Assembly (NCBI GenBank): GCA_035549315.1
Contig: DASZRC010000027.1
Location: 4,514-68,513 of the forward strand
Source of the DNA: Patescibacteria group bacterium
GTDB lineage: Bacteria; Patescibacteriota; Microgenomatia; Levybacterales; GWA1-39-11
Reading direction: 5' to 3'
DNA length: 64,000 nucleotides
The notes under the pieces were generated by a model that did not search any database, was not told the DNA's origin, and worked only from the letters and a program-made list of their open reading frames with translations. Made by a program: the position numbers and the translations under genes. Shown here piece by piece: positions 32,771-61,219 of this stretch (within the stretch, counting starts at the first letter, position 1; each line of letters starts with the position of its first letter).

Positions 32771-32860
32771 ATACAAAATTTATATTATAAAGACTTTTTA
32801 TGCTTTTGATAAATTTTATTCTATTAAAAAATTATTAACCAGAATTTTAAAAAACAAATG

Positions 32861-32896
32861 GCAGCCAAACAACGTCGCCATTATTGGACGAAAAAC
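32861..32896. repeat. Conserved 3'-end motif GCAGCCAAACAACGTCGCCATTATTGGACGAAAAAC, copy A. It starts 9 bp after the stop of 32905..33540.
   Basis: Copy B (33613..33648) shares ~33/36 nt with it. The core GCAGCCAAACAACGT also occurs at 36047..36061. Confidence 0.75.
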
Positions 32897-32904
32897 TTAA
32901 TGGC

Positions 32905-33540
32905 TTAGGGTTCTTCGTGATATTTTTCCATAAACTCCTGTCTCCACTTTTGTAATCTTGCCGCACTTGGACTATTGGGATCCGGAACATAATCTTTATT
33001 ATTTCCGCCCTCTCTATTAAGATTTTGAATAAATCTTTCCATAACTCTAATATTCTGTAATGAGCCCCTATATTTTCTGCTATATGCGAGCTTCTCAATA
33101 ACTTTTGCATCTTTTGGGTCGAAAATTCCCGCTCCATCCTGTGAATTAACAACAACTATATCGTAGACAAAATCCTTTTTCATCTCATCTGCAAGAGGAC
33201 CAACTAAAAACCTCGTCTCTCTAGGGTTAAATTCAATCTCTTTCCATGCCCCCGCATCGCATAAACCCTCAAATATCTCTATTAATTCCTCTCTAAATGA
33301 CGGTGTTATATGAGCCTGTGGAAGTAATCCCCTGACCCCAACCATAATTCTGTCTTTCAATTCTGATGTTCTGGGCACATCTGAAACTTCCATTGCCGGT
33401 AGACCAAATGCTTTCTCTAATGAACTTGGCTCAACCCTCTTAAATCTCATGTCTCTTCTTGGAAGTAAATCATATAAGCCCAATAATTGGTGATTTAAAA
33501 ATTGAGGATCTTGTGGGATTGGAACGCCTTCTGTTGTCAT
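32905..33540 (-). CDS. Hypothetical protein (211 aa). It is the last gene of the minus-strand hypothetical cluster.
   Basis: ORF only. Confidence 0.45.
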   Translation of the reverse strand: MTTEGVPIPQDPQFLNHQLLGLYDLLPRRDMRFKRVEPSSLEKAFGLPAMEVSDVPRTSELKDRIMVGVRGLLPQAHITPSFREELIEIFEGLCDAGAWKEIEFNPRETRFLVGPLADEMKKDFVYDIVVVNSQDGAGIFDPKDAKVIEKLAYSRKYRGSLQNIRVMERFIQNLNREGGNNKDYVPDPNSPSAARLQKWRQEFMEKYHEEP

Positions 33541-33612
33541 TGGATTGAATTATAAATCCAACCAGCAATAAGGTAAAGTACTTTTGAATAAACGGTCAAA
33601 AACGTCCGACCA

Positions 33613-33648
33613 GCAGCCAAACAACGTGGCAATTATTGGACGAAAGAC
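33613..33648. repeat. Conserved 3'-end motif, copy B (GCAGCCAAACAACGTGGCAATTATTGGACGAAAGAC). It overlaps the stop codon of 33633..35150.
   Basis: Seen in the sequence. Confidence 0.75.
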
Positions 33649-35150
33649 GTAGTTACCTGAATTAATTGAGCTAAGTTTCTTTCCTCTCTCATTCTAAGCC
33701 TCAATTCATCCGCTCTAGTAGATAGTCTTTTTCTCTCCTCTGACCATTTTTCGCGGTCCGTATCTGAATTGGCAGCTTGAATCATTCCATCGAGCGCATT
33801 GCTTCCTCTATTTAATGCTTTTAACTCATGTACCATTAAACCTAATTTATTAAATTCCTCGGCTGCAGAAGAACTCGCAATATAAGATCGATTATCCCAA
33901 TCGGCTCTATTAGCTTTGTCCAATTTTCTTATACGTGATGCCGTCTTTGATAGCTCAATGAGAGCATTAGCAGCCCTTCTTGGATCTTTTACGCGGTCAA
34001 AATCCTGCGCAATCTTTAATTGAGTTTGATATAAAAGTTCAAGATAAGTTATTTTTCTTTTCTCCCAAGTCTCCTTATCCTCTGGTTTCAATTTAATCAT
34101 CCCATCTATTCCTGCTAGACAATATATGAGCTGCGTTACCCGCCTAGAAGGATTGGTTTCCGAATCTGCCATTCTCTTATTCCAACCGATATTTTTATCC
34201 AACCATTGACTCTTATCTTCATCTGTATCTGATAACTTAACCAAATTACTTGTAATGAATGCCGCCAAACCATACTCCGCCCTTAGAGATTCTCCATCCT
34301 GCGCAAGATCTATAGAACGAGTTACAGAATTATCTGCAACAACAAACCATTTCCTAGCCTCGTCTTTATTTACCTCACCATATCCAATCGCAGCTGCAGC
34401 CTGAGCAGACCAGTATATATATACTCTCTCCCCATGAGAATTATCACTCCTATGAGAAACTTCTGCTGCTTTCCGTGCATGATCAAACCATATTTCATCC
34501 CATGCTCTCTTATCTTCTGGAGTATTTACATATAACGCCGCTTTTCTCGCTGATTTATGAAGAGTGGCATGAAAAGTAAATTCCCAACCATTGTTTATAA
34601 GAGATACGGAGTCTAGAATATCATGAAGGTTTTTATATGCCTGTTCTAATAAATCTTTTCGTTTTTCTGGATCTTCCTCTATCTCTGCCTGTTCATTTCT
34701 TGCCCAGGCCTGCATGACAGCGGCAGAAAAAACTTGCCCAGATGAATCTGGCAGTTTTAAATCCAAAGCTTTATCTGACCACTTACATGACTCTTCATAC
34801 CAGTTAATCTTAGCAGCTGGCTCAGTCTCTCCGCGGGCGACTTTAAGTGCACTATCACCTAGATTTACGTATGCCAACAACCTGACCTTGGCGGGCATTT
34901 CTAAATGCAAGATTTTTCTAACCGAGTTGAAGGCTCCAAGCGCATTACCGTCCATCATGTCTACTGTACTATTTTTAATAGCACGGTAGATATTGGGTTT
35001 CCTGACCAAATTAGAACCTCTACCCAAACGCCTATTACTACCTTCTTTTTCTAAAAGAGAATTTGCAAGATCTTCCTCGCCCATATATTGCTCAAGAAGT
35101 GATGCAAAATCTTCTTCTGGTTGAGCACCCGGATTGTCTAGTTCTGTCAT
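33633..35150 (-). CDS. Hypothetical protein (505 aa), predicted all-alpha with repeat-like segments and a C-terminal coiled coil
   Basis: The ORF is preceded by a conserved promoter cassette and followed by motif B. Confidence 0.5.
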   Translation of the reverse strand: MTELDNPGAQPEEDFASLLEQYMGEEDLANSLLEKEGSNRRLGRGSNLVRKPNIYRAIKNSTVDMMDGNALGAFNSVRKILHLEMPAKVRLLAYVNLGDSALKVARGETEPAAKINWYEESCKWSDKALDLKLPDSSGQVFSAAVMQAWARNEQAEIEEDPEKRKDLLEQAYKNLHDILDSVSLINNGWEFTFHATLHKSARKAALYVNTPEDKRAWDEIWFDHARKAAEVSHRSDNSHGERVYIYWSAQAAAAIGYGEVNKDEARKWFVVADNSVTRSIDLAQDGESLRAEYGLAAFITSNLVKLSDTDEDKSQWLDKNIGWNKRMADSETNPSRRVTQLIYCLAGIDGMIKLKPEDKETWEKRKITYLELLYQTQLKIAQDFDRVKDPRRAANALIELSKTASRIRKLDKANRADWDNRSYIASSSAAEEFNKLGLMVHELKALNRGSNALDGMIQAANSDTDREKWSEERKRLSTRADELRLRMREERNLAQLIQVTTSFVQ

Positions 35151-35154
35151 GTGC

Positions 35155-35210
35155 GTATTTTATCAAAAAATGAGGCTAAATGCTCAAGGTTAGTTAGGAG
35201 AGGTTAGTTG
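35155..35210 (-). promoter_or_regulatory. Conserved promoter cassette, copy 1. On the minus strand it reads …AACAACTAACCTCTCCTAACTAACCTTGAGCATTTAGCCTCATTTTTTGATAAAATACGCAC-ATG. A TAAAAT -10 lies 6 nt before the start of 33633..35150, and the cassette also contains a remnant of a small-gene 3' end.
   Basis: About 50 of 53 nt are identical to copy 2 at 36971..37024. A diverged third copy lies at 35985..36015. Confidence 0.55.
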
Positions 35211-35299
35211 TTTTTTATTGAGCCACTTACATTATCAGGCAAATTATCAAAATATAATTTCCTTTGATCTTCCTCAAGTTTACCAATCTGTTTTTCATT

Positions 35300-35980
35300 T
35301 TATTTGTTTACTACTGCATACAAATACTTATATGCATCGACTGCAAGCTGTGCGCCCGCAAGAGTAAATTCCGGAATCAACAATCCATGATAATCGGCAG
35401 CAAAAAGCTGTCTCCTCATACTCTTTAGTTGCTCTTCTACTGTTTTTTCTCCAGAATTATCCTTAATTAAAGTATCACTACGTCTTTTTGCTTGATCTAT
35501 TAACTTCAGATAATATTCTGCGTCTTTAACAGCGTCTAGCTCCACGCCGTTTACAACTCTAACATAATCCATTGATTCCTGAACGACTTGTCCCGCGGTT
35601 CCTGCTATATACTCCTCTCCCGAAGAAATCGAATTAATAATTACACCAGCACCCACTGATGCATCAGCCAAAACAAAGAAGTGATTCATTTCATTCTTGC
35701 CCATCTCAACAAGTGCATCTTTACCCATAACCCCGGAAAGATCCACCATTAATCGTGCTGTAATTAAGCCTGGAACGGAATGCCCTTTGCCAGATTCCCT
35801 ACTATCTCTTATTTCTCCCGCAATATCAGTTTTTTTATCCTTAAGCCCTCTCATGAGAGCTTGCTTGTAGCCGGAAAAATAAGCAAGAGTATCTCTTTTA
35901 TCTGCTTTTGACAGATTTCTTGATCTTTCACCCCACATCACCCTGTATGTAAACACTAAATCATTTTCCTGATTTGCCAT
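35300..35980 (-). CDS. Hypothetical protein, 225-aa family paralog P1
   Basis: Shares with 36285..36962 the motifs WG(E/D)RSRNLS, YFSGY(K/R)Q, LADAS, GEEYIAG and an identical 23-aa C-terminus EFTLAGAQLAVDAYKYLYAVVNK. Confidence 0.55.
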   Translation of the reverse strand: MANQENDLVFTYRVMWGERSRNLSKADKRDTLAYFSGYKQALMRGLKDKKTDIAGEIRDSRESGKGHSVPGLITARLMVDLSGVMGKDALVEMGKNEMNHFFVLADASVGAGVIINSISSGEEYIAGTAGQVVQESMDYVRVVNGVELDAVKDAEYYLKLIDQAKRRSDTLIKDNSGEKTVEEQLKSMRRQLFAADYHGLLIPEFTLAGAQLAVDAYKYLYAVVNK

Positions 35981-36046
35981 AACGCGTATTTTACCAAAAT
36001 ATATGCCTAAAAGCTTATTTTATTTTTATATCCTACAAAAAATTGG

Positions 36047-36061
36047 CAGCCAAACAACGTT
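36047..36061. repeat. Core GCAGCCAAACAACGT, copy C
   Basis: Seen in the sequence. The upstream context AAAAATTGGCAGCC resembles copy A. Confidence 0.6.
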
Positions 36062-36164
36062 TCCATACAAGAATTTAAAATTTAGAAATATTTTGACTCA
36101 TATATGAGACAAAATAAATTAAAAGTTAAGATAAAGAATGTAGTTGTTTGTGGAAGAAAGATCT

Positions 36165-36282
36165 AACTATTTCTTATTGGGGATTCAGCATATTCATTTT
36201 CTTTGTAAATATATGCCTGTACCCTTACTGCTCGTAGATACCCACCTTCTTCTTCCTCAATATTTCCGAATCTTTCTTTCAT
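36165..36282 (-). pseudogene. Truncated duplicate (39 codons) of the N-terminus of the small-paralog gene 37356..37706. It sits 2 bp after the stop of paralog P2.
   Basis: ATGAAAGAAAGATTCGGAAATATTGAGGAAGAAGAAGG matches the first ~38 nt of 37356..37706 except for 3 substitutions, and the sequence then diverges to a stop. A more decayed copy (ATGAAAAACAGATTGGTAAACTTGAGGAAGATCAAAGG) lies at ~35220..35290, directly after paralog P1. Confidence 0.55.
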
Positions 36283-36284
36283 TT

Positions 36285-36962
36285 TTATTTGTTTACTACC
36301 GCATACAAATACTTATATGCATCAACTGCTAATTGAGCTCCTGCGAGCGTAAACTCCGGAACCCACAGCCCTCTATATCCCGCAACTGAAAATCCCTTTC
36401 TCAAACTTTTTAATTTATCCTCTACCGTCTTCGCTCCAGAATTATCCTTAATTAAGGCGGAACTACCTAGCTTTGCCTCCTCCATCATCTTTATATATAT
36501 CCCTGCACCACGTACTGCATCTATGCTTGGGTCAAAAGATTCTGCTACATATCCAATAGTTTCGCTCACTTTGTTTTCCGCAATTCCTGCGATATATTCT
36601 TCCCCTTCTGTTACTGAATGCAAGACTAAGGTGGAACCCATGGATGCATCAGCTAAAACTAAAAAATTGTTAACTTTATTCGCCGCCATTTGATTGAGCG
36701 CGTCATGGTCTATTACCCGAGGAATCTCCATCACTAAACGATTGGCTATTAGGCTAGGGACCGAGAGCCTAGTCCTATCTGCTGTAGCAGTCTTTATATC
36801 AGCCACAAGCTCATCCCTCTTATTTTTTAGATCTCTTAATAACGACTGCCTGTATCCGGAGAAGTAGAACATAGCAGCTTTTTTATCTGCTTCCGAAAGA
36901 TTTCTACTTCTATCTCCCCACGCTTCTCTCATTCTAAATACTAATCCAGCTTCATGATTCAT
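36285..36962 (-). CDS. Hypothetical protein, 225-aa family paralog P2
   Basis: Paralogous to 35300..35980. The last ~45 nt of the two genes are nearly identical, and a promoter cassette copy lies upstream. Confidence 0.55.
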   Translation of the reverse strand: MNHEAGLVFRMREAWGDRSRNLSEADKKAAMFYFSGYRQSLLRDLKNKRDELVADIKTATADRTRLSVPSLIANRLVMEIPRVIDHDALNQMAANKVNNFLVLADASMGSTLVLHSVTEGEEYIAGIAENKVSETIGYVAESFDPSIDAVRGAGIYIKMMEEAKLGSSALIKDNSGAKTVEDKLKSLRKGFSVAGYRGLWVPEFTLAGAQLAVDAYKYLYAVVNK

Positions 36963-36970
36963 AATGGTTG

Positions 36971-37024
36971 CATTTTATCAAAAAATGAGGCTAAATGCTC
37001 AAGGTTAATTAGGAGAGGTTAGTG
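36971..37024 (-). promoter_or_regulatory. Conserved promoter cassette, copy 2. It is upstream of paralog P2 and overlaps the last codons and stop of 37009..37353.
   Basis: Near-identical to 35155..35210. Confidence 0.55.
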
Positions 37025-37353
37025 AGCCTTTTTTCCATTGATAGACTTACTTCTATTGCCCTTCTTTTTCTTACTAAGAAATCTACAAAATTCCATTCTA
37101 TTTCCTTTATCTCTCCACCTTTACTTAGAACCTTTTTAATCCTTTCATCTTGTGCATATGTTGGCCCCAAACCAATAACAACTACAGCCTGCATATATTT
37201 ATTACCTTCTATGTATACTGTTGCTCCGGGATTTTGCTTCACAATTCTATCAACTACAAAATACGCCCCGAGCGATTGACGCAGAGATTTAAAAATCGCT
37301 GCCCTAACATATACGCCTTCTTCTTTAAAAATTGGTCCGAGTTTTTCCGCCAT
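37009..37353 (-). CDS. Small hypothetical protein (114 aa), small-paralog family member C
   Basis: Shares the pattern …EEGxYxRxA…NPGAxV…VVVIG… with 37769..38131 and, more loosely, with 37356..37706. Confidence 0.5.
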   Translation of the reverse strand: MAEKLGPIFKEEGVYVRAAIFKSLRQSLGAYFVVDRIVKQNPGATVYIEGNKYMQAVVVIGLGPTYAQDERIKKVLSKGGEIKEIEWNFVDFLVRKRRAIEVSLSMEKRLTNLS

Positions 37354-37355
37354 GA

Positions 37356-37706
37356 TTAGTTACGTCTTATTGGATCCATTTGTCCATTAGAATATTTTTT
37401 GAGTGCTTGATCACTATAAATTCCTTCAACCCTAGAAATAAGATCATCGTCAAATTGCATTATTCGTCCTGATATTGCAAGTGCATTAGTTATCGCCTTA
37501 TCAACTGTTTCCCTGGGTTTTTGCCTTGCACTTACAATAAGGAGAAACTTTTCTCCATAAGGAAGACCTGCGACATTAACGCTTGCACCATTAATAGCTG
37601 CCAATATTCCATCTCCCGCCCAGGAAACTTCATCCTGTGAATCCACTTCTGCAACTCTTAGGTATATTCCTTCCTCTTCCTCAATATTTCCAAATCTTTC
37701 TTTCAT
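37356..37706 (-). CDS. Small hypothetical protein (116 aa), small-paralog family member B. It has weak roadblock/LC7-like character (GDGILAAINGASVNVAGLP).
   Basis: ORF with a 2-bp gap to the downstream gene. Its N-terminus is duplicated twice downstream as decayed fragments. Confidence 0.5.
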   Translation of the reverse strand: MKERFGNIEEEEGIYLRVAEVDSQDEVSWAGDGILAAINGASVNVAGLPYGEKFLLIVSARQKPRETVDKAITNALAISGRIMQFDDDLISRVEGIYSDQALKKYSNGQMDPIRRN

Positions 37707-37768
37707 AGAAAGGAATTATATGATTAAAGTGGGGAAAAGTAAATTTAAGTCACCTCTAAGTTAAGAGG

Positions 37769-38131
37769 TTAGTTGTTTGAGGCAAGCTTTTGCTTTAAGG
37801 ATTCTTCTATTTCTTCTCCTATTCTTTTTCTAAGTAAACCATCAACTACCAACTCATGTACGTTAATTTCTCTTCCATTCTTATCTTTCAAAGCACTCAT
37901 AATATCATTATCAAAACGCCAATAAGATTCATCATCTCCAATAACAATAACCGTACTCATATTCTTATTTCCCGGGGGAACCAAATGCACTTGTGCACCA
38001 GGATTTCTATCTACTATTCCGGAGACGGAATTAAATGCTTTATCCGCTTGTATTGGATCATAGAATATTGCACCCCTTACATACCTTCCTTCGTCCTTCT
38101 CAATAGCGCTTCTTTGTCTTTCATTTTTCAT
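37769..38131 (-). CDS. Small hypothetical protein (120 aa), small-paralog family member A
   Basis: Paralogous to 37009..37353. Confidence 0.5.
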   Translation of the reverse strand: MKNERQRSAIEKDEGRYVRGAIFYDPIQADKAFNSVSGIVDRNPGAQVHLVPPGNKNMSTVIVIGDDESYWRFDNDIMSALKDKNGREINVHELVVDGLLRKRIGEEIEESLKQKLASNN

Positions 38132-38218
38132 AAGTTTTTAATAATTATTATTCTGTGATTTCTTATGCCACAAGTTAAGTATTATAAGATTGATAAGTTA
38201 AAAAGTAAAATTAAGTAG

Positions 38219-38695
38219 CTATTCCTCAAACGGATTAGGGAGAGGATCGCGGGGCGGAAGATATTTAGCATAATAAGCCATAATATGGAGATTCATATCT
38301 ACCCCTAATTCTTGGTATGCTGCCAAATATTTCATTTTTGCTTCCTGAATTCTTAATGCTGCAAGCTCAGGATCAAGGCCACCCAAGACATCATCTACAA
38401 TTCTTTTTCCTATGGGAGGTAGATACAATGTCTGCTCTTTTCTATCCTTATTATAGGAATCTTCCATTAAGCCCCTATTATGGATTCTCCCTCCTAGTAT
38501 ATTTAAGGAATATAAAGTTCTTTGCGCAACATTAGCCTCGGATAAATCAAGAGATGAGTACAAGCCTTTAACTCTGTCTAACTCTTGCCTAGCTGTTTCT
38601 AGTGTAATTTCAGGATAGGGCTCGGGCTCAGGCGCCACATTTTCCGGCTTTCTCCAGAAAGCGAATCTACCAAATTTACCGCGTCTTGATTCCAT
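38219..38695 (-). CDS. Hypothetical protein (158 aa)
   Basis: ORF only. Confidence 0.45.
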   Translation of the reverse strand: MESRRGKFGRFAFWRKPENVAPEPEPYPEITLETARQELDRVKGLYSSLDLSEANVAQRTLYSLNILGGRIHNRGLMEDSYNKDRKEQTLYLPPIGKRIVDDVLGGLDPELAALRIQEAKMKYLAAYQELGVDMNLHIMAYYAKYLPPRDPLPNPFEE

Positions 38696-38731
38696 AATCT
38701 ATATTATAGGTCTAATTGTTTAAAAGTCAAA

Positions 38732-39202
38732 CTAAGATTTTTTACGGGGAAATTGCGGAATTTGATCCGGAGTTACGATACCTCTTTTAACAAGCTCAAA
38801 TAATCTACTGCCATCTGTTATTTGTGCCTTCAATCTATCTATCTCAGCCAAGGCAGCTCTATTCACCCCAGCATCATTTCTTCCTGGATCAACCATTTGT
38901 TCCCGAAAAAACTGGGCTGCTTTCCTAACCCTTACCGATGGCTTATCATAATCCCAACTTTCTCTTGCAGCTTGAACATCGCGAATATTTTCAAAAGATC
39001 TACCATCAAAAAATCCAAAATCCAAATCTGGAATTCTATTATTAATAGCAACTTCATCTGCTATGGCAATTACTTGCGCAGCATTAACAATCCCTTCTCT
39101 TGTTAAAATTTTTCGTGTTCTGGGATCTAAACGTAAAAGCTCAAGTCCCATCTGAGAGAATCGATTTGGCTGATACCTATCTTCTTTTTGATCTGCACTC
39201 AT
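38732..39202 (-). CDS. Hypothetical protein (156 aa)
   Basis: ORF only. Confidence 0.45.
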   Translation of the reverse strand: MSADQKEDRYQPNRFSQMGLELLRLDPRTRKILTREGIVNAAQVIAIADEVAINNRIPDLDFGFFDGRSFENIRDVQAARESWDYDKPSVRVRKAAQFFREQMVDPGRNDAGVNRAALAEIDRLKAQITDGSRLFELVKRGIVTPDQIPQFPRKKS

Positions 39203-39240
39203 AAAACGGATTATAAGATTTTAGATGTGAAGTTGCAAAC

Positions 39241-39921
39241 CTATCCTACAGCAACCGGCTCTTGGGGATGATGCTTGTCATATACTCCCATTATTTCTTC
39301 TAATTTTTCTTTTGCCTCTGTCATTAGCTGGTCATCCGGATTAGCCAATAAAGTTTTGTAATTTTTCCTCATATCAGAAAGCATTTCATCAAGTTCTTCA
39401 ACCCTTGTTGAGTGATTTTCTACAACATAGTAAACAAAGTTGCTATGATATGGGTCATTCTGTGCCGTTAACTCTTCTCCTGGTTTTAAAGGCGTGCGTG
39501 GCCTTCCGCCTTTTTCAACAAGAAAATAATGGTCCCGTCTTATAAAATCTGCAATAAGATCTCTAACCAAAAGCTTTTTATCTATGGGACTATTTGTAAC
39601 TTCTTGATAAAAAGTAGCTACCGCTCCGCTGAAATCTTCCCCAACGCTACCCTGAGTTAAAATCATTCCGGCTTTGTTTTCTCTAGGATGATTACCGGAC
39701 AAAACTACATTTGCCATCTTTCCCTCAAGGGCAGAATCCAACCCGACGTCTTCCACTAGTTCGTCTGTCATAACCCAATCAGGCCTAATACTTTTTGCAT
39801 ATGAAAACATTTTTCTTTGAGCAAGCTTATCTCCTTGAGAAAGCGGGAATGTTGCAAAAACAATTGCTTTTGCTTTATCTGCTGTGAGTGGGGGATATTG
39901 CCCTGGCTTCTCTTCTTCCAT
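39241..39921 (-). CDS. Hypothetical protein (226 aa), the first gene of the minus-strand cluster
   Basis: ORF only. It has weak, unconvincing similarity to the P1/P2 family in its central region. Confidence 0.45.
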   Translation of the reverse strand: MEEEKPGQYPPLTADKAKAIVFATFPLSQGDKLAQRKMFSYAKSIRPDWVMTDELVEDVGLDSALEGKMANVVLSGNHPRENKAGMILTQGSVGEDFSGAVATFYQEVTNSPIDKKLLVRDLIADFIRRDHYFLVEKGGRPRTPLKPGEELTAQNDPYHSNFVYYVVENHSTRVEELDEMLSDMRKNYKTLLANPDDQLMTEAKEKLEEIMGVYDKHHPQEPVAVG

Positions 39922-52184: not shown

Positions 52185-52270
52185 CGAGCAAAGGCGGAGG
52201 AGACAGGATTCGAACCTGCGAGAGTCTTACGACTCAGGGATTTAGCAAACCCCCTCAGTGGGCCACTGTG
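52185..52270 (-). tRNA. tRNA-Ser (anticodon GCU)
   Basis: Manual fold: acceptor GGAGGAG/CTCCTCC, anticodon loop TTGCTAA, long variable arm and T-loop GGTTCGAATCC. Two GC hairpins follow its 3' end. Confidence 0.8.
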
Positions 52271-52386
52271 ACACTCCTCCAGAGGCTATATTATACCAAA
52301 GCTAAACTTGTTTTTGTTAAATTCTGTTAGGATTTTGTGAGGCTAATTAGGTTGCTCACAAACCCTCCCTGTGCTATGATTTAGAC

Positions 52387-52824
52387 ATGCCTGACATAGT
52401 AGAACATCAGCCGATATCAAATGTGGCTCCAGCAGCTCAGCACATTGAACCCAATCCCCACATGGATGTTGTTGCAGCCAATGTAGATACCGTGCACGAA
52501 AAAGAGATAGAAAAGGAACTTGCAAAAGTTGCAAAAGAAGTTGGAGGAGAGCCAACACATACGGCAGCGCTTGCCCAGGATTTAACAGGGGACAATATCC
52601 AAATTATTGAAAAGCCAAAAGTCCATCCTGATGATAACAGATGGGGAGCAGAAAGATTAGAAGAGATAGAAAATTTGAAAAAGGGAATTAAGGTAAATAA
52701 GAAAAACAATATTCTCTCGGGTCTAACTAGTATTTTTAGCAGAAAAAATAGCGCTACAAAAATGCAGGACCAACAGATAAGTCGTCCGCAACAAACGGAA
52801 GGAGAAATAAAAAATGCAGCTTGA
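52387..52824 (+). CDS. Hypothetical protein (145 aa)
   Basis: ORF only. It overlaps the next gene by 11 bp. Confidence 0.4.
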   Translation: MPDIVEHQPISNVAPAAQHIEPNPHMDVVAANVDTVHEKEIEKELAKVAKEVGGEPTHTAALAQDLTGDNIQIIEKPKVHPDDNRWGAERLEEIENLKKGIKVNKKNNILSGLTSIFSRKNSATKMQDQQISRPQQTEGEIKNAA

Positions 52825-55231
52825 TTCATTTTCAACACTAGTAATTAATGTAGTTCTTGCTTTTGTGATTGCGTTTTTACTTTCCTCAATTATTATTGCT
52901 TGTCTTGTAGGAATTGCTATTGCTTTTGGGTTCTGGCAGAAAAGTAAAAAAAGACAAGAGAGAGCTATTGATACTGTCTTATTAGAAGTGTCTTTGCCTC
53001 GCGAAAATGAAATAAAGATTGATGCAGCTGAACAGCTTTTCTCAAGCCTCACATCCATGAAAGGAACAAAAGGAATGTTGTCATTCCTAAAACTTGCAGA
53101 TAGCATTTCTTTTGAAATTGTTGCGCGTCCACAAGACATTAGATTCTACATTGGAGTTTCAAATAAATTAAAGGACATGGTTGAGAAACAAATTCATGGG
53201 GCCTACCCTGACGCACAAATTTTGGAAGTTGAAGACTACAATCTTTTTCAACACCCTGGAAAAATAGCCTATGCATCCTTAAAACTTGAGAAGTCTAATT
53301 ATTTACCAATCAAAACCTATAAGGATCTAGCTATTGATCCATTGTCTTCAATCACAAGCACTATTGGGAAAATGGTAGAAGGAGAAGCAGCTGCCATACA
53401 AATATTAATAACTCCCGGCGGAGATGCTTGGAAAAAAGCAGGGAGAGAATATATTACAACTACCAAAAAACGCGAGGCAAATCCTGAAACAGCAAAGTAC
53501 TCTGTTGACCAAAAAGAATTAGAAGCAATTGAGCAGAAAATTACAAAGCCCGGGTTTATGACTTACGTCAGAATAATGGCAGTAGCCCCAACAAAAGAGG
53601 CAGCAGATATCCACCTATCAAATATAGAAGGGGCGTTTTCTCAATTTTCATCCTTTAATTCTTTTGGAACGGAAAAAAATAAATTTTTCAAAGGAATGGC
53701 GATTGTTGATTTTATATACCGCCAACTCCCACTTATTCCAAAAAATCTTGGCGTCTTAGCAACAGATGAACTTGCAACCATTTTCCACTTTCCAAATAAA
53801 ACCGTTGAGACACCAAGCATTCACTGGCTTGGAGCTCGCGTTGCTCCGGCTCCTGCTAATATTCCAAACCATGGCCTATTCTTAGGAAAGAGTGTTTACA
53901 GAGGACAAGAAAGACCAATATTTATTGGGGATGATGACAGAAGGCGACATATGTATATCATTGGAAAAACCGGAGTAGGAAAATCAGAATTCTTAAAAGA
54001 CATGATTCTGCAAGATATTAGGGAAGGAAAAGGAGTCTGTTTTATTGACCCGCACGACACAATAGATATGATTCTTCCTCTTATTCCGCCGGAAAGAGCT
54101 GAGGATGTAATCTTGTTTGACCCGTCTGATACAGAACGCCCCATGGGAATTAACTTCTTGGACGCAGACACTGAAGAACAAAAAGATCTTATCTGTTCTT
54201 CAATCATAGGACTTATGTACAAACTTTACGACCCTAATAAAACAGGTATTATTGGTCCGCGTTTTGAGCACGCAATTAGAAATGCAATGTTAACCGTTAT
54301 GACTGAAAAGGGAAATACTTTTGTAGAAGTTGTTAGGGTCTTAACAGATGCTTCTTTTGTTCAGGAGTTATTGCCAAAACTTCAGGATCCCATGGTAAGA
54401 CGTTATTGGACAGACCAAATTGCACAAACTTCTGACTTCCACAAATCAGAAGTTCTTGATTACATTGTTTCAAAGTTTGGAAGATTTGTTACAAACCGTA
54501 TGGTAAGAAATATTATTGGACAAAGTGAATCCGGATTTAACTTCCGTAAAGTTATGGATGAAGGGAAAATTCTCCTGATCTCTCTTGCAAAAGGAAAGAT
54601 TGGAGAAGATAATGCTGCTTTTCTTGGTCTAATTCTTGTTCCAAGAATCTTGGCTGCTGCTATGAGTAGGCAAGATATTCCACAAGACCAAAGGCGCGAC
54701 TTTTATCTATATGTTGATGAGTTCCAAAATTTCGCTACTCCTGACTTTGGACAGATTTTGTCTGAGGCAAGAAAATACAAGCTTAACTTAATTGTTGCAA
54801 ACCAGTTTATTGGACAAATTGAAGAAGATGTTAAGAACGCAATTTTTGGAAATGCCGGTACAATAATTTCTTTCCGTGTTGGAGTATCTGATGCAAATTA
54901 TTTACAACATGAATTCCAGCCAATATTTAATGAGGCGGATTTAATTAACGTAGAGGTTTACCATGCATATATTAAAACTCTTATTGGAAACGAACCAACG
55001 CCTCCTTTCTCTCTTGACCTTACAAAGGATATTGCTGCAGAGAAAAAAATGGAAAACCCAAGAGTTGCAGAATTAGTACGGGAACTATCACGTCTTAAAT
55101 ACGGTAAGCCAAAAGATTTGGTGGAAGCAGAAATTGCAAAGCGTTCAAGGCTTTACGAAGTCTTGGGTGATATTCAATCTAGTATTGAGGGGAATAATGA
55201 ATCCGGTCTTGGACCGGGAGGAAGTATTTAG
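52814..55231 (+). CDS. TraD/TraG/VirD4-family (DUF87-like) membrane-anchored ATPase, a type IV secretion coupling-protein homolog
   Basis: Two N-terminal TM segments, a Walker A (IIGKTGVGKSEF), a Walker B (FYLYVDEFQNF) and a conserved C-terminal region of VirD4/TraG-like ATPases. Confidence 0.65.
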   Translation: MQLDSFSTLVINVVLAFVIAFLLSSIIIACLVGIAIAFGFWQKSKKRQERAIDTVLLEVSLPRENEIKIDAAEQLFSSLTSMKGTKGMLSFLKLADSISFEIVARPQDIRFYIGVSNKLKDMVEKQIHGAYPDAQILEVEDYNLFQHPGKIAYASLKLEKSNYLPIKTYKDLAIDPLSSITSTIGKMVEGEAAAIQILITPGGDAWKKAGREYITTTKKREANPETAKYSVDQKELEAIEQKITKPGFMTYVRIMAVAPTKEAADIHLSNIEGAFSQFSSFNSFGTEKNKFFKGMAIVDFIYRQLPLIPKNLGVLATDELATIFHFPNKTVETPSIHWLGARVAPAPANIPNHGLFLGKSVYRGQERPIFIGDDDRRRHMYIIGKTGVGKSEFLKDMILQDIREGKGVCFIDPHDTIDMILPLIPPERAEDVILFDPSDTERPMGINFLDADTEEQKDLICSSIIGLMYKLYDPNKTGIIGPRFEHAIRNAMLTVMTEKGNTFVEVVRVLTDASFVQELLPKLQDPMVRRYWTDQIAQTSDFHKSEVLDYIVSKFGRFVTNRMVRNIIGQSESGFNFRKVMDEGKILLISLAKGKIGEDNAAFLGLILVPRILAAAMSRQDIPQDQRRDFYLYVDEFQNFATPDFGQILSEARKYKLNLIVANQFIGQIEEDVKNAIFGNAGTIISFRVGVSDANYLQHEFQPIFNEADLINVEVYHAYIKTLIGNEPTPPFSLDLTKDIAAEKKMENPRVAELVRELSRLKYGKPKDLVEAEIAKRSRLYEVLGDIQSSIEGNNESGLGPGGSI

Positions 55232-55255
55232 GTTATAGGCAATAGGTATTAGGGG

Positions 55256-55328
55256 TGGGCGCGATAGGACTCGAACCTATGACCAGGTGTGTATAAGACA
55301 CCCGCTCTACCAACTGAGCTACACGCCC
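55256..55328 (-). tRNA. tRNA-Ile with a genomically encoded UAU anticodon
   Basis: A canonical 73-nt cloverleaf: acceptor GGGCGTG/CGCGCCC, D-arm TAGCTCAGTTGGTAGAGC, anticodon stem GGTGT/ACACC, loop CTTATAC and T-loop GGTTCGAGTCC. Confidence 0.8.
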
Positions 55329-60244: not shown

Positions 60245-60685
60245 ATGCGAGTTGTTAATAAATTTGCCAATACGTATAAGCCTCTTGATAAAATTGAGGC
60301 AGGCATTGCTTTGCTTGGAAGTGAGGTAAAGGCTTTACGTGAAGGACATGCTGACATAACCGGCAGCTATATTAGAATAAGTGGTCTTGAGGCATATCTA
60401 GTTAATGGAAAGATTTTTCCATATAAGTTTTCTAGAATTGGCGGATACCAAGAAGATAGAAGCAGAAAACTATTGCTCCATAAAAAGGAAATATTGGCTT
60501 TGAAAAGCAAAATGGATCAAGGGAAATATACAATTATTCCGCTGGCAATTTATTTAAAAGACAGAAATTTTAAAGTTGAAATAGCTCTTGTTGAAAGCAA
60601 AGATAAAAGAGAAAAAAGGCGGGACAAAAGACGTGACACTATGGAACGCGACGAAGCGCGGGAAATAAAAAACCTAGTTTCCTAA
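60245..60685 (+). CDS. smpB: SsrA-binding protein SmpB
   Basis: SmpB core (…GIALLGSEVKALREGHADITGSYI…LLHKKEILAL…) and a basic C-terminal tail. Confidence 0.85.
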   Translation: MRVVNKFANTYKPLDKIEAGIALLGSEVKALREGHADITGSYIRISGLEAYLVNGKIFPYKFSRIGGYQEDRSRKLLLHKKEILALKSKMDQGKYTIIPLAIYLKDRNFKVEIALVESKDKREKRRDKRRDTMERDEAREIKNLVS

Positions 60686-60781: not shown

Positions 60782-61193
60782 GGGGATGCATTGCATCGAC
60801 AAGGTTGCTCATTAAAAACTGCAAGCCGATAATGATACTAATCGCAAAATTGTATCAAAAATAAATGCTGACGGAGTTATATCCAAAGGCCGTGGGTTAA
60901 TGCCAAAATTGGCAGATGCCTTCTCACCAAAAGCTTATGCTTTTAGTGGGTTAGCTGCTTAAAAAACAGCCACTATTTACACCGTTTCTTTTCTCAAGCG
61001 GATAGGTGTAGGTAAAAACAAAGTTTGAGATAGGATAAGGAAGTTGATTTGGTCCTTACTCCAAAACTAAGAATCTTGGAATTGTTTTCCCCGCCAATTG
61101 GGTCAGAACAAGACGACAATTAAGATTTGGCTAAGCTTGTAGATGTTTTTAGAGAGTCAATTTTGGACGAGGGTTCATTACCCTCCATCTCCA
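60782..61193 (+). ncRNA. ssrA: tmRNA (SsrA), ~412 nt
   Basis: The 5' end GGGGATGCATTGCATCGACAAGG pairs with the 3' end CATCTCC-A to form an acceptor stem carrying the G3·U70 alanine identity pair. T-arm GAGGG-TTCATTA-CCCTC. An internal tag ORF ends …AYAFSGLAA-TAA. The gene lies immediately downstream of smpB. Confidence 0.7.
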
Positions 61194-61219
61194 CAAAAGT
61201 TAGTAGTAGAGCATACCCA

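Follow-up and report, generated by a model that had tools for sequence, protein, structure and literature searches.

Although the genomes of Patescibacteria are small, no function has been assigned to a large part of the genes in them. The described kinds of locus closest to the one considered here are flexible genomic islets and the defence islands with systems catalogued in PADLOC. The locus is a block of ten co-oriented open reading frames (ORFs), g1 to g10, all encoded on the minus strand at positions 32905-39921 and separated by intergenic gaps of 2-304 nt, within a stretch of 64,000 nucleotides of a Patescibacteria group bacterium (GCA_035549315.1, contig DASZRC010000027.1), which is referred to as the window. 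With flexible islets the block shares conserved bracketing genes, a content that differs between relatives, many genes without homologues, local duplication and decay, and the uptake of a restriction-modification (R-M) system. It differs from them in that neither a mobility gene nor a compositional signature of import was found, and in that the triad g1-g3 and a family of small proteins appear to be inherited and under purifying selection. With defence islands it shares fast-evolving genes of no assigned function and a position adjoining a Type II R-M system with C protein and an Mrr/ATP-cone nuclease; it differs in having no PADLOC match, no enzymatic effector domain and no co-occurrence of its genes elsewhere, and its R-M neighbour is absent from a sister genome. 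As a genome feature, the block is a fresh example of a familiar flexible islet of lineage-specific orphan genes. The initial annotation of this DNA, in which the coordinates of the ten ORFs were correct, had proposed that they form one undescribed defence-like system. An undescribed, duplicated and strain-variable block was indeed recovered, whereas the single system was not: the ten genes are probably a lineage-restricted, fast-turnover patchwork of mostly independently transcribed orphan genes.

The comparison with the sister genome was central to this reading. The GT2 (glycosyltransferase family 2) protein encoded next to g1 was used to find, among the GTDB species representatives, a Patescibacteria metagenome-assembled genome (contig DASZYA010000043.1, referred to as L010), in which both flanks of the block are conserved (GT2 protein 84%, Mrr/ATP-cone nuclease 88%, GH26 (glycoside hydrolase family 26) protein 74% and GT2-GH8 protein 89% identical). 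Between these flanks L010 carries orthologues of g1 (39241-39921; 226 aa, an acidic soluble protein and the best conserved of the lineage core; 71-72% identical, L010 9035-9721), of g2 (38732-39202; 156 aa, basic with a pI of 9.4; 50-51%) and of g3 (38219-38695; 158 aa, the third of the conserved triad; 50-51%). Five genes of the small family are present in L010, while the window holds three intact ones, g4 (37769-38131; 120 aa), g5 (37356-37706; 116 aa) and g6 (37009-37353; 114 aa), and two stubs. Orthologues were assigned for g5 (L010 5831-6169) and for g6 (L010 5479-5826; 50% identical), and the order of g1, g2, g3 and the small family is identical in the two genomes. The remaining genes, g7 (36285-36962; 225 aa), g8 (35300-35980; 226 aa, where 225 aa had been reported at first), g9 (33633-35150; 505 aa) and g10 (32905-33540; 211 aa), are all absent from L010 and are therefore regarded as strain-specific additions. 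Likewise absent are the genes for the C protein, the BglII-like endonuclease and the D12 methylase, so that the adjacency of the R-M system is a strain-specific insertion. The defence-island setting that had been assumed for the block was not borne out, since only the Mrr/ATP-cone gene is conserved, at a distance of about 4 kb. The inherited core accordingly appears to consist of g1-g3 and an array of small genes that varies in copy number. L010 also has contents of its own between the anchors: its array is interrupted by three plus-strand genes (two unknowns and a methyltransferase-like gene), and an intact gene for a 264-aa class-I methyltransferase and one for a Kelch/C39-like protein are present.

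Selection on the conserved part was estimated from the proportions of non-synonymous and synonymous differences (pN/pS) between the window and L010, which were 0.17/0.64 for g1, 0.34/0.69 for g2, 0.29/0.57 for g3 and 0.35-0.48/0.59-0.70 for the small family, compared with 0.09/0.68 for the flanking GT2 gene. Because pN is lower than pS in all six genes with orthologues, these are considered to be under purifying selection, with a non-synonymous divergence 2-5 times that of GT2. Additionally, another assembly of this strain (GCA_964585445.1, CAZPDH010000014.1) was compared. Over 20,345 nt it is identical to the window, block included, apart from two single nucleotide polymorphisms; both lie in g6 (37055 and 37073), and each is an A/T change with a non-synonymous effect (I to K, V to E). 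Both fall within the C-terminal helix of the g6 protein.

The arrangement of putative promoters would also fit genes that are transcribed separately. Eight of the ten genes (g1, g2, g3, g5, g7, g8, g9 and g10) have a TATAAT-like -10 box that ends 6-10 nt before the ATG, and several block genes have a good -35 box as well; g4 and g6 are the exceptions to an own -10 box close to the start codon. The predicted promoter of g3 reads TTGACT-16-TATAAT and ends 7 nt before the ATG, and the -10 boxes of g5 and g10 each lie 8 nt before it. The same placement was found for the orthologues in L010. Since the -10 boxes sit gene by gene, in L010 and across the window too, the block is probably not one operon, and most of its genes would be transcribed separately as leaderless mRNAs. 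Elsewhere in the window TATAAT-like boxes 6-10 nt before the start, with no Shine-Dalgarno sequence in between, occur for example upstream of 17641, 25010, 27508 (minus strand), 47584 (minus strand) and 50800 (minus strand) and also upstream of 55422, 57368, 60245 and 62755, a pattern that points to widespread use of leaderless mRNAs in this organism. For one pair the arrangement is different: g6 starts 2 nt after the stop codon of g5 and is therefore probably translationally coupled to it, and the same coupling is seen for the orthologues in L010.

These results bear on a narrower proposal, in which g1-g3 together with the array of small-family genes make up one coherent conflict system, so far undescribed, acting in defence, counter-defence or the interaction of an episymbiont with its host. 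The triad would then be the effector or sensor, and the small paralogues would confer specificity or neutralise variable targets. The four families do co-occur with their order kept in both genomes, the small family has expanded in tandem, partly decayed and diverged fast (its eight members are 17-50% identical), and the hotspot has acquired an R-M system in the one genome and methyltransferase-like genes in its sister. However, no nuclease, ATPase, protease, nucleotidyltransferase or other effector-type domain was detectable, and the PADLOC search (5027 models, PADLOC-DB v2) gave as its best match Cas8a over 47 residues of g4 (E=0.019, 12 bits), which is noise. Moreover, the genes seem to be transcribed separately, the array of L010 is broken by plus-strand genes, and conservation in two close relatives may be plain inheritance. 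A conflict system of this composition is therefore judged unlikely. The broader version, a conflict or host-interaction module specific to Patescibacteria with the array as variable specificity, the triad as constant function and the all-alpha family of g7 and g8 as a further new fold recruited to the hotspot, is equally doubtful, while a conflict-related role for some part of the block is still conceivable.

Several points weigh against the patchwork reading and have to be set beside it. The distinction between core and additions is drawn from a two-genome comparison, the material covered being one sister genome and one further assembly of the strain itself. As g1-g3 and the small family occur together in both genomes, they could be a functional unit. 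The block promoters are consensus matches and as such predicted. The synonymous divergence is saturated and speaks neither for nor against positive selection. The rarity of g1-g6 and g10 is judged from JGI scans (small family and g1), IMG/VR scans and phage tblastn (g1), and the biochemical function suggested for every product is deduced. On the other side, a ten-gene system would have its families as neighbours in other genomes, while L010 lacks g7-g10 and ten contigs carry the family of g7 and g8 alone.

Within the block, repeats record how the strain-specific segments may have arisen. The promoter cassette that had been described as reused was confirmed as a 52-nt element upstream of g7 (cassette A, 36972-37023, minus strand) and of g9 (cassette C, 35157-35208, minus strand); identity between the copies reaches 98%, where chance would give 0 matches. 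Along the coding strand, the final codons of a small gene (N-L-S-stop, as in g6) open the cassette, which continues with an extended -10 promoter, TTGAGC-17 nt-TGATAAAAT, which is predicted to end 6-9 nt ahead of the ATG. Cassette C repeats the small-gene 3′ end again, and upstream of g8 a partial, diverged copy of the promoter was found (cassette B, 35984-36015, minus strand; 81% identical). The cassettes are thus predicted to drive g7 (A), g8 (B) and g9 (C). The decayed extra copies of the small gene that had been noted earlier were likewise recovered. Stub 1 (36163-36282, minus strand; 39 codons) opens with a new ATG right after the stop codon of g7 and is still recognisable over its N-terminal ~15 residues, with a 52-nt stretch that resembles the 5′ end of g5 at 85% identity and a match to the hidden Markov model (HMM) of the small family at E=7.7e-6 (model positions 1-22). 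Stub 2 (35227-35298, minus strand; 24 codons) likewise opens with a new ATG right after the stop codon of g8. Because of the cassettes and of the stubs directly after the g7 and g8 stop codons, the duplicated unit can be delimited as small-gene end, promoter, 225-aa gene and small-gene start.

A conserved 3′-end motif had been reported for the block, and it does recur, in three copies of 39 nt (32861-32899, 33613-33651 and 36046-36084); it is not a motif of the block's own genes, however, but a methyltransferase relic on the opposite strand. Copy 1 belongs to a pseudogene remnant (32787-32902, plus strand) of the 3′ end of a class-I methyltransferase gene, which translates to IKTFYAFDKFYSIKKLLTRILKNKWQPNNVAIIGRKT followed by a stop. 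It matches the C-terminus of the 264-aa methyltransferase of L010 with 74% nucleotide identity and, by tblastn, with 67% identity over 42 aa (E=3e-14); of that gene, intact in L010, only the last ~113 nt survive in the window. Copy 2 (33613-33651, plus strand; 90% identical to copy 1) and copy 3 (36046-36084, plus strand) are junction scars, and the former end of the array is marked by relic copy 1. Inside copy 2, and read antisense to it, lie the final codons of g9 with their stop (..TSFVQ*, 33633-33651), and the coding end of g9 has been recruited from the complement of the dead gene.

Three copies of a gene 3′ end that bracket g10 and the g9-g8 segment are also what tandem integrations at one attachment (att) site would leave, and the R-M insertion shows that the site takes foreign DNA. 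The block could on that account be the remnant of a prophage or mobile element with the 39-nt copies as att sites duplicated in successive integrations. This is nevertheless highly improbable, as no integrase, recombinase, phage structural or replication gene is present, no PHROGs match was obtained below E=0.0026, and relatives were missing from INPHARED (g1 only), IMG/VR and BFVD. The inserted segments also copy local sequences, namely small-gene ends and promoter, pointing to local duplication and not to import. The GC content of the block is raised, with the excess in codon positions 1-2, while the GC content of third codon positions (GC3) is 0.21-0.35, the same as elsewhere in the window. 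As GC3 matches the rest of the window, and hence the host, there is no compositional sign of recent import, and a foreign origin deduced from the raised GC content was rejected.

The block thus occupies a variable interval that is anchored by the conserved Mrr/ATP-cone nuclease gene on one side and by the conserved gene for the GT2 cellulose-synthase-like protein on the other. Its stable core is the triad g1-g3 with a tandem array of small paralogues whose copy number varies between genomes, while g7/g8, g9 and g10 are additions found in this genome specifically. The added segments carry copies of a small-gene end, of the promoter downstream of it and of the 39-nt methyltransferase end, which are the present-day scars. 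Unequal or illegitimate recombination at the distal end of the array may have brought these additions in. The turnover of the small family, together with its relaxed yet purifying selection, may reflect adaptation to a changing partner.

The g7 and g8 products are paralogues, as had been proposed (52% identical, E=9e-82). Their final 24 residues are identical, yet 10 of the 24 codons differ synonymously, and the same C-terminus is the most conserved motif across the wider 225-aa family. Recent gene conversion was ruled out as the cause of the identical ends by these synonymous differences, which together with the conservation in the family argue for constraint; the C-termini point to purifying selection on an old duplication. 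AlphaFold gave a confident all-alpha fold (pLDDT 92.8), and no structural neighbour of this model was found in the PDB or among viral structures. A HEPN-like toxin was considered for this family and rejected, since neither a conserved His nor an Rx4-6H motif occurs among the invariant columns.

Relatives of the 225-aa family were searched for at several depths. While a word-seeded search of 5.8 billion protein clusters with g7 returned g7 itself and its paralogue g8 and nothing else, and a pattern-seeded scan of GTDB genomes with g7/g8 returned no relatives, a HMMER scan of 1.84 billion representatives with a two-sequence profile gave 31 matches at E up to 1e-3 (hmmsearch E-values of 1e-11 to 8e-4). 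These comprise the cluster of g7 itself and 30 distant relatives of 192-276 aa, which align nearly end-to-end at 18-24% identity and share the motifs F..D...G, AE, DPSGF and PE.V.AGAELA..YK.LYP that define the family. A renewed search with a 32-sequence profile retrieved at least four proteins, and no Pfam model matches any of the 32 aligned sequences. With 31 representative clusters among 1.84 billion proteins the family is rare and not one of widespread single-copy core genes. Ten other contigs with homologues could be inspected, and on them the gene stands by itself or in a tandem pair, in housekeeping settings of various kinds: between TopA and the SpoU methylase (two cases, one of them a tandem pair), close to L33 and RNase HII on one contig, on a contig of 56% GC with metabolic genes around it, between FolD and PriA/Def/Fmt, adjoining genes for a cupin, a GDSL lipase and MgtE, and adjoining ComEC and ComEA. 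Four further contigs were too short for context. No relative of any other block gene was found on the ten contigs, so that the 225-aa family works without the rest of the block, and the co-occurrence with the ~115-aa family that would have been expected in other genomes failed to appear. On the unrelated low-GC contig L002 (2766-4507) a tandem pair of diverged paralogues between topA and the SpoU methylase gene is followed by a gene for a small sigma-70 region-4-like protein.

The small ~115-aa proteins g4, g5 and g6 do form one family, as had been read from the letters (g4/g6 40% identical, E=4e-16; g5/g6 27% identical, E=3e-5), which with the five members of L010 comprises eight sequences of 17-50% identity. 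Its best-conserved stretch is the N-terminal motif MKERFGxIExEEGxYVRAA, and the C-terminal end (..N-x-S/N) is weakly conserved. This is the reverse of the fast N-terminal divergence that had been described. A structure model drawn from the three paralogues is ferredoxin-like (pLDDT 80.5): the predicted beta-alpha-beta-beta-alpha-beta topology is that of a ferredoxin-like alpha+beta sandwich, which denotes a fold class and not a homologous family. The same order is common to PCD/DCoH, CutA, the ribosomal proteins S6 and S10, bacterial microcompartment (BMC)-like proteins and designed ferredoxin folds. To none of these does the small family have sequence or profile similarity, and it differs from them by its own N-terminal motif and an additional C-terminal helix of ~27 residues. 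The predicted fold is generic and of the kind used by small oligomeric modules that bind ligands, proteins or nucleic acids.

Two more specific assignments were tried for the small family and rejected. The roadblock/LC7-like character that had been attributed to one of its members was not confirmed: there is no Pfam match (PF03259) for g4-g6 at E up to 1, the predicted order of strands and helices is ferredoxin-like, and hhalign with a DYNLRB1 sequence gave a probability of 0.1. The likeness to roadblock/LC7 proteins (MglB-like) is that of a small alpha/beta protein of comparable size, while the roadblock fold itself was not found. For a BMC shell protein (PF00936) no Pfam match was obtained either, the block contains no enzyme gene or EutN-type gene, and the hhalign probability against a PduA sequence was 0.1.

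Arrays of immunity genes generally consist of small cytoplasmic, tandem and diverged paralogues with decayed copies. The small-family array has this appearance, with proteins of ~115 aa that would be cytoplasmic, tandem diverged paralogues, pseudogenised copies and a copy number that changes between genomes, and it might accordingly be an orphan immunity- or antitoxin-like array whose diverged copies block toxins of competitors or toxins encoded elsewhere in the genome. Such a role is rather improbable, because neither a toxin gene nor a toxin domain was found in the variable region of the window or of L010, no Pfam immunity family was matched, and the fold is generic.

All ten products carry the name 'hypothetical protein' at NCBI (VG917_04480 to VG917_04525). 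That they are unannotatable, as first stated, was upheld by searches against Pfam, NCBIfam, PADLOC and PHROGs, none of which returned a significant match. The proteins are hydrophilic and almost free of Cys, and, in agreement with the first description, no transmembrane segment is evident (the highest 19-residue Kyte-Doolittle window is 1.62). They appear to be soluble intracellular proteins with no catalytic signature, which most probably act through the binding of partners or in regulation. Sequence and profile searches of the PDB with g1, g2, g3, g9, g10 and both families gave nothing significant, pattern-seeded IMG/VR scans with g1, g2, g3, g7/g8, g9 and g10 gave no relatives, and the same holds for pattern-seeded scans of JGI metagenomes with g1 and the small family and for tblastn of g1 against the phage genomes of INPHARED. 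The g9 protein, a strain-specific orphan that is Trp-rich (13 W) and highly charged, matched itself alone in the word-seeded search of 5.8 billion protein clusters; g10 is the second strain-specific orphan. For g2, two 'GIV/GIT' hairpin-like motifs align with the helix-hairpin-helix of the C-terminal domain of RpoA (hhalign probability 0.1, not significant), and a putative helix-hairpin-helix DNA binder is a lead only. Nothing relevant turned up in the literature searched. The proteins of the block are undescribed and their families uncatalogued; for one family the confidently predicted fold had no neighbours in the PDB and viral libraries. Such cases are common in Patescibacteria.

The locus illustrates the birth and turnover of orphan genes: a fixed hotspot, tandem duplication of units that carry their promoter, copies that decay, and a gene whose coding end was taken from the antisense of a dead one. 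Two targets emerge from it, namely the all-alpha family, which is uncatalogued and has a high-confidence model, and the small ferredoxin-like family, whose membership grows and shrinks between sister genomes. For the triage of such loci it shows that orphan genes lined up in one orientation next to an R-M system look like a defence island, and that one sister-genome comparison sufficed to recognise the R-M adjacency as recent and the orphan run as not one unit.

The neighbouring genes are as they had been described. On one flank are the genes for the C protein, the BglII-like endonuclease, the D12 methylase, a class-I methyltransferase, the ATP-cone/Mrr nuclease and a Nudix protein, and on the other flank GT2, GH26 and GT2-GH8 genes. 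The window segment 29079-32902, with the C protein, the BglII-like nuclease, the D12 methylase, a 186-aa unknown and a 243-aa methyltransferase, corresponds to L010 562-3689, which holds the Kelch/peptidase-C39-like protein (747 aa) and the 264-aa methyltransferase. Beyond g1, the plus-strand segment 40217-47420 encodes two large fusion proteins, a cellulose-synthase-like GT2 protein of 1117 aa whose C-terminus is extended by a long multi-pass part and a 952-aa GT2-GH8 fusion, with a GH26-like protein between them. The window is otherwise an ordinary Patescibacteria chromosome, with MurJ, envelope glycosyltransferases, UvrD, FemAB, SmpB, transfer-messenger RNA (tmRNA) and superoxide dismutase. 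The tmRNA gene (60782-61196, plus strand) directly follows smpB (60245-60685) and has a long predicted tag peptide, ADGVISKGRGLMPKLADAFSPKAYAFSGLAA. An 805-aa protein with weak matches to coupling-protein domains of the VirD4/TraG/TrwB type (52814-55231, plus strand) is encoded between tRNA-Ser (52193-52280) and tRNA-Ile (55254-55328). The latter is called by ARAGORN on the minus strand with the anticodon TAT, which is unusual in bacteria, where AUA is mostly decoded by a lysidine-modified CAT tRNA.

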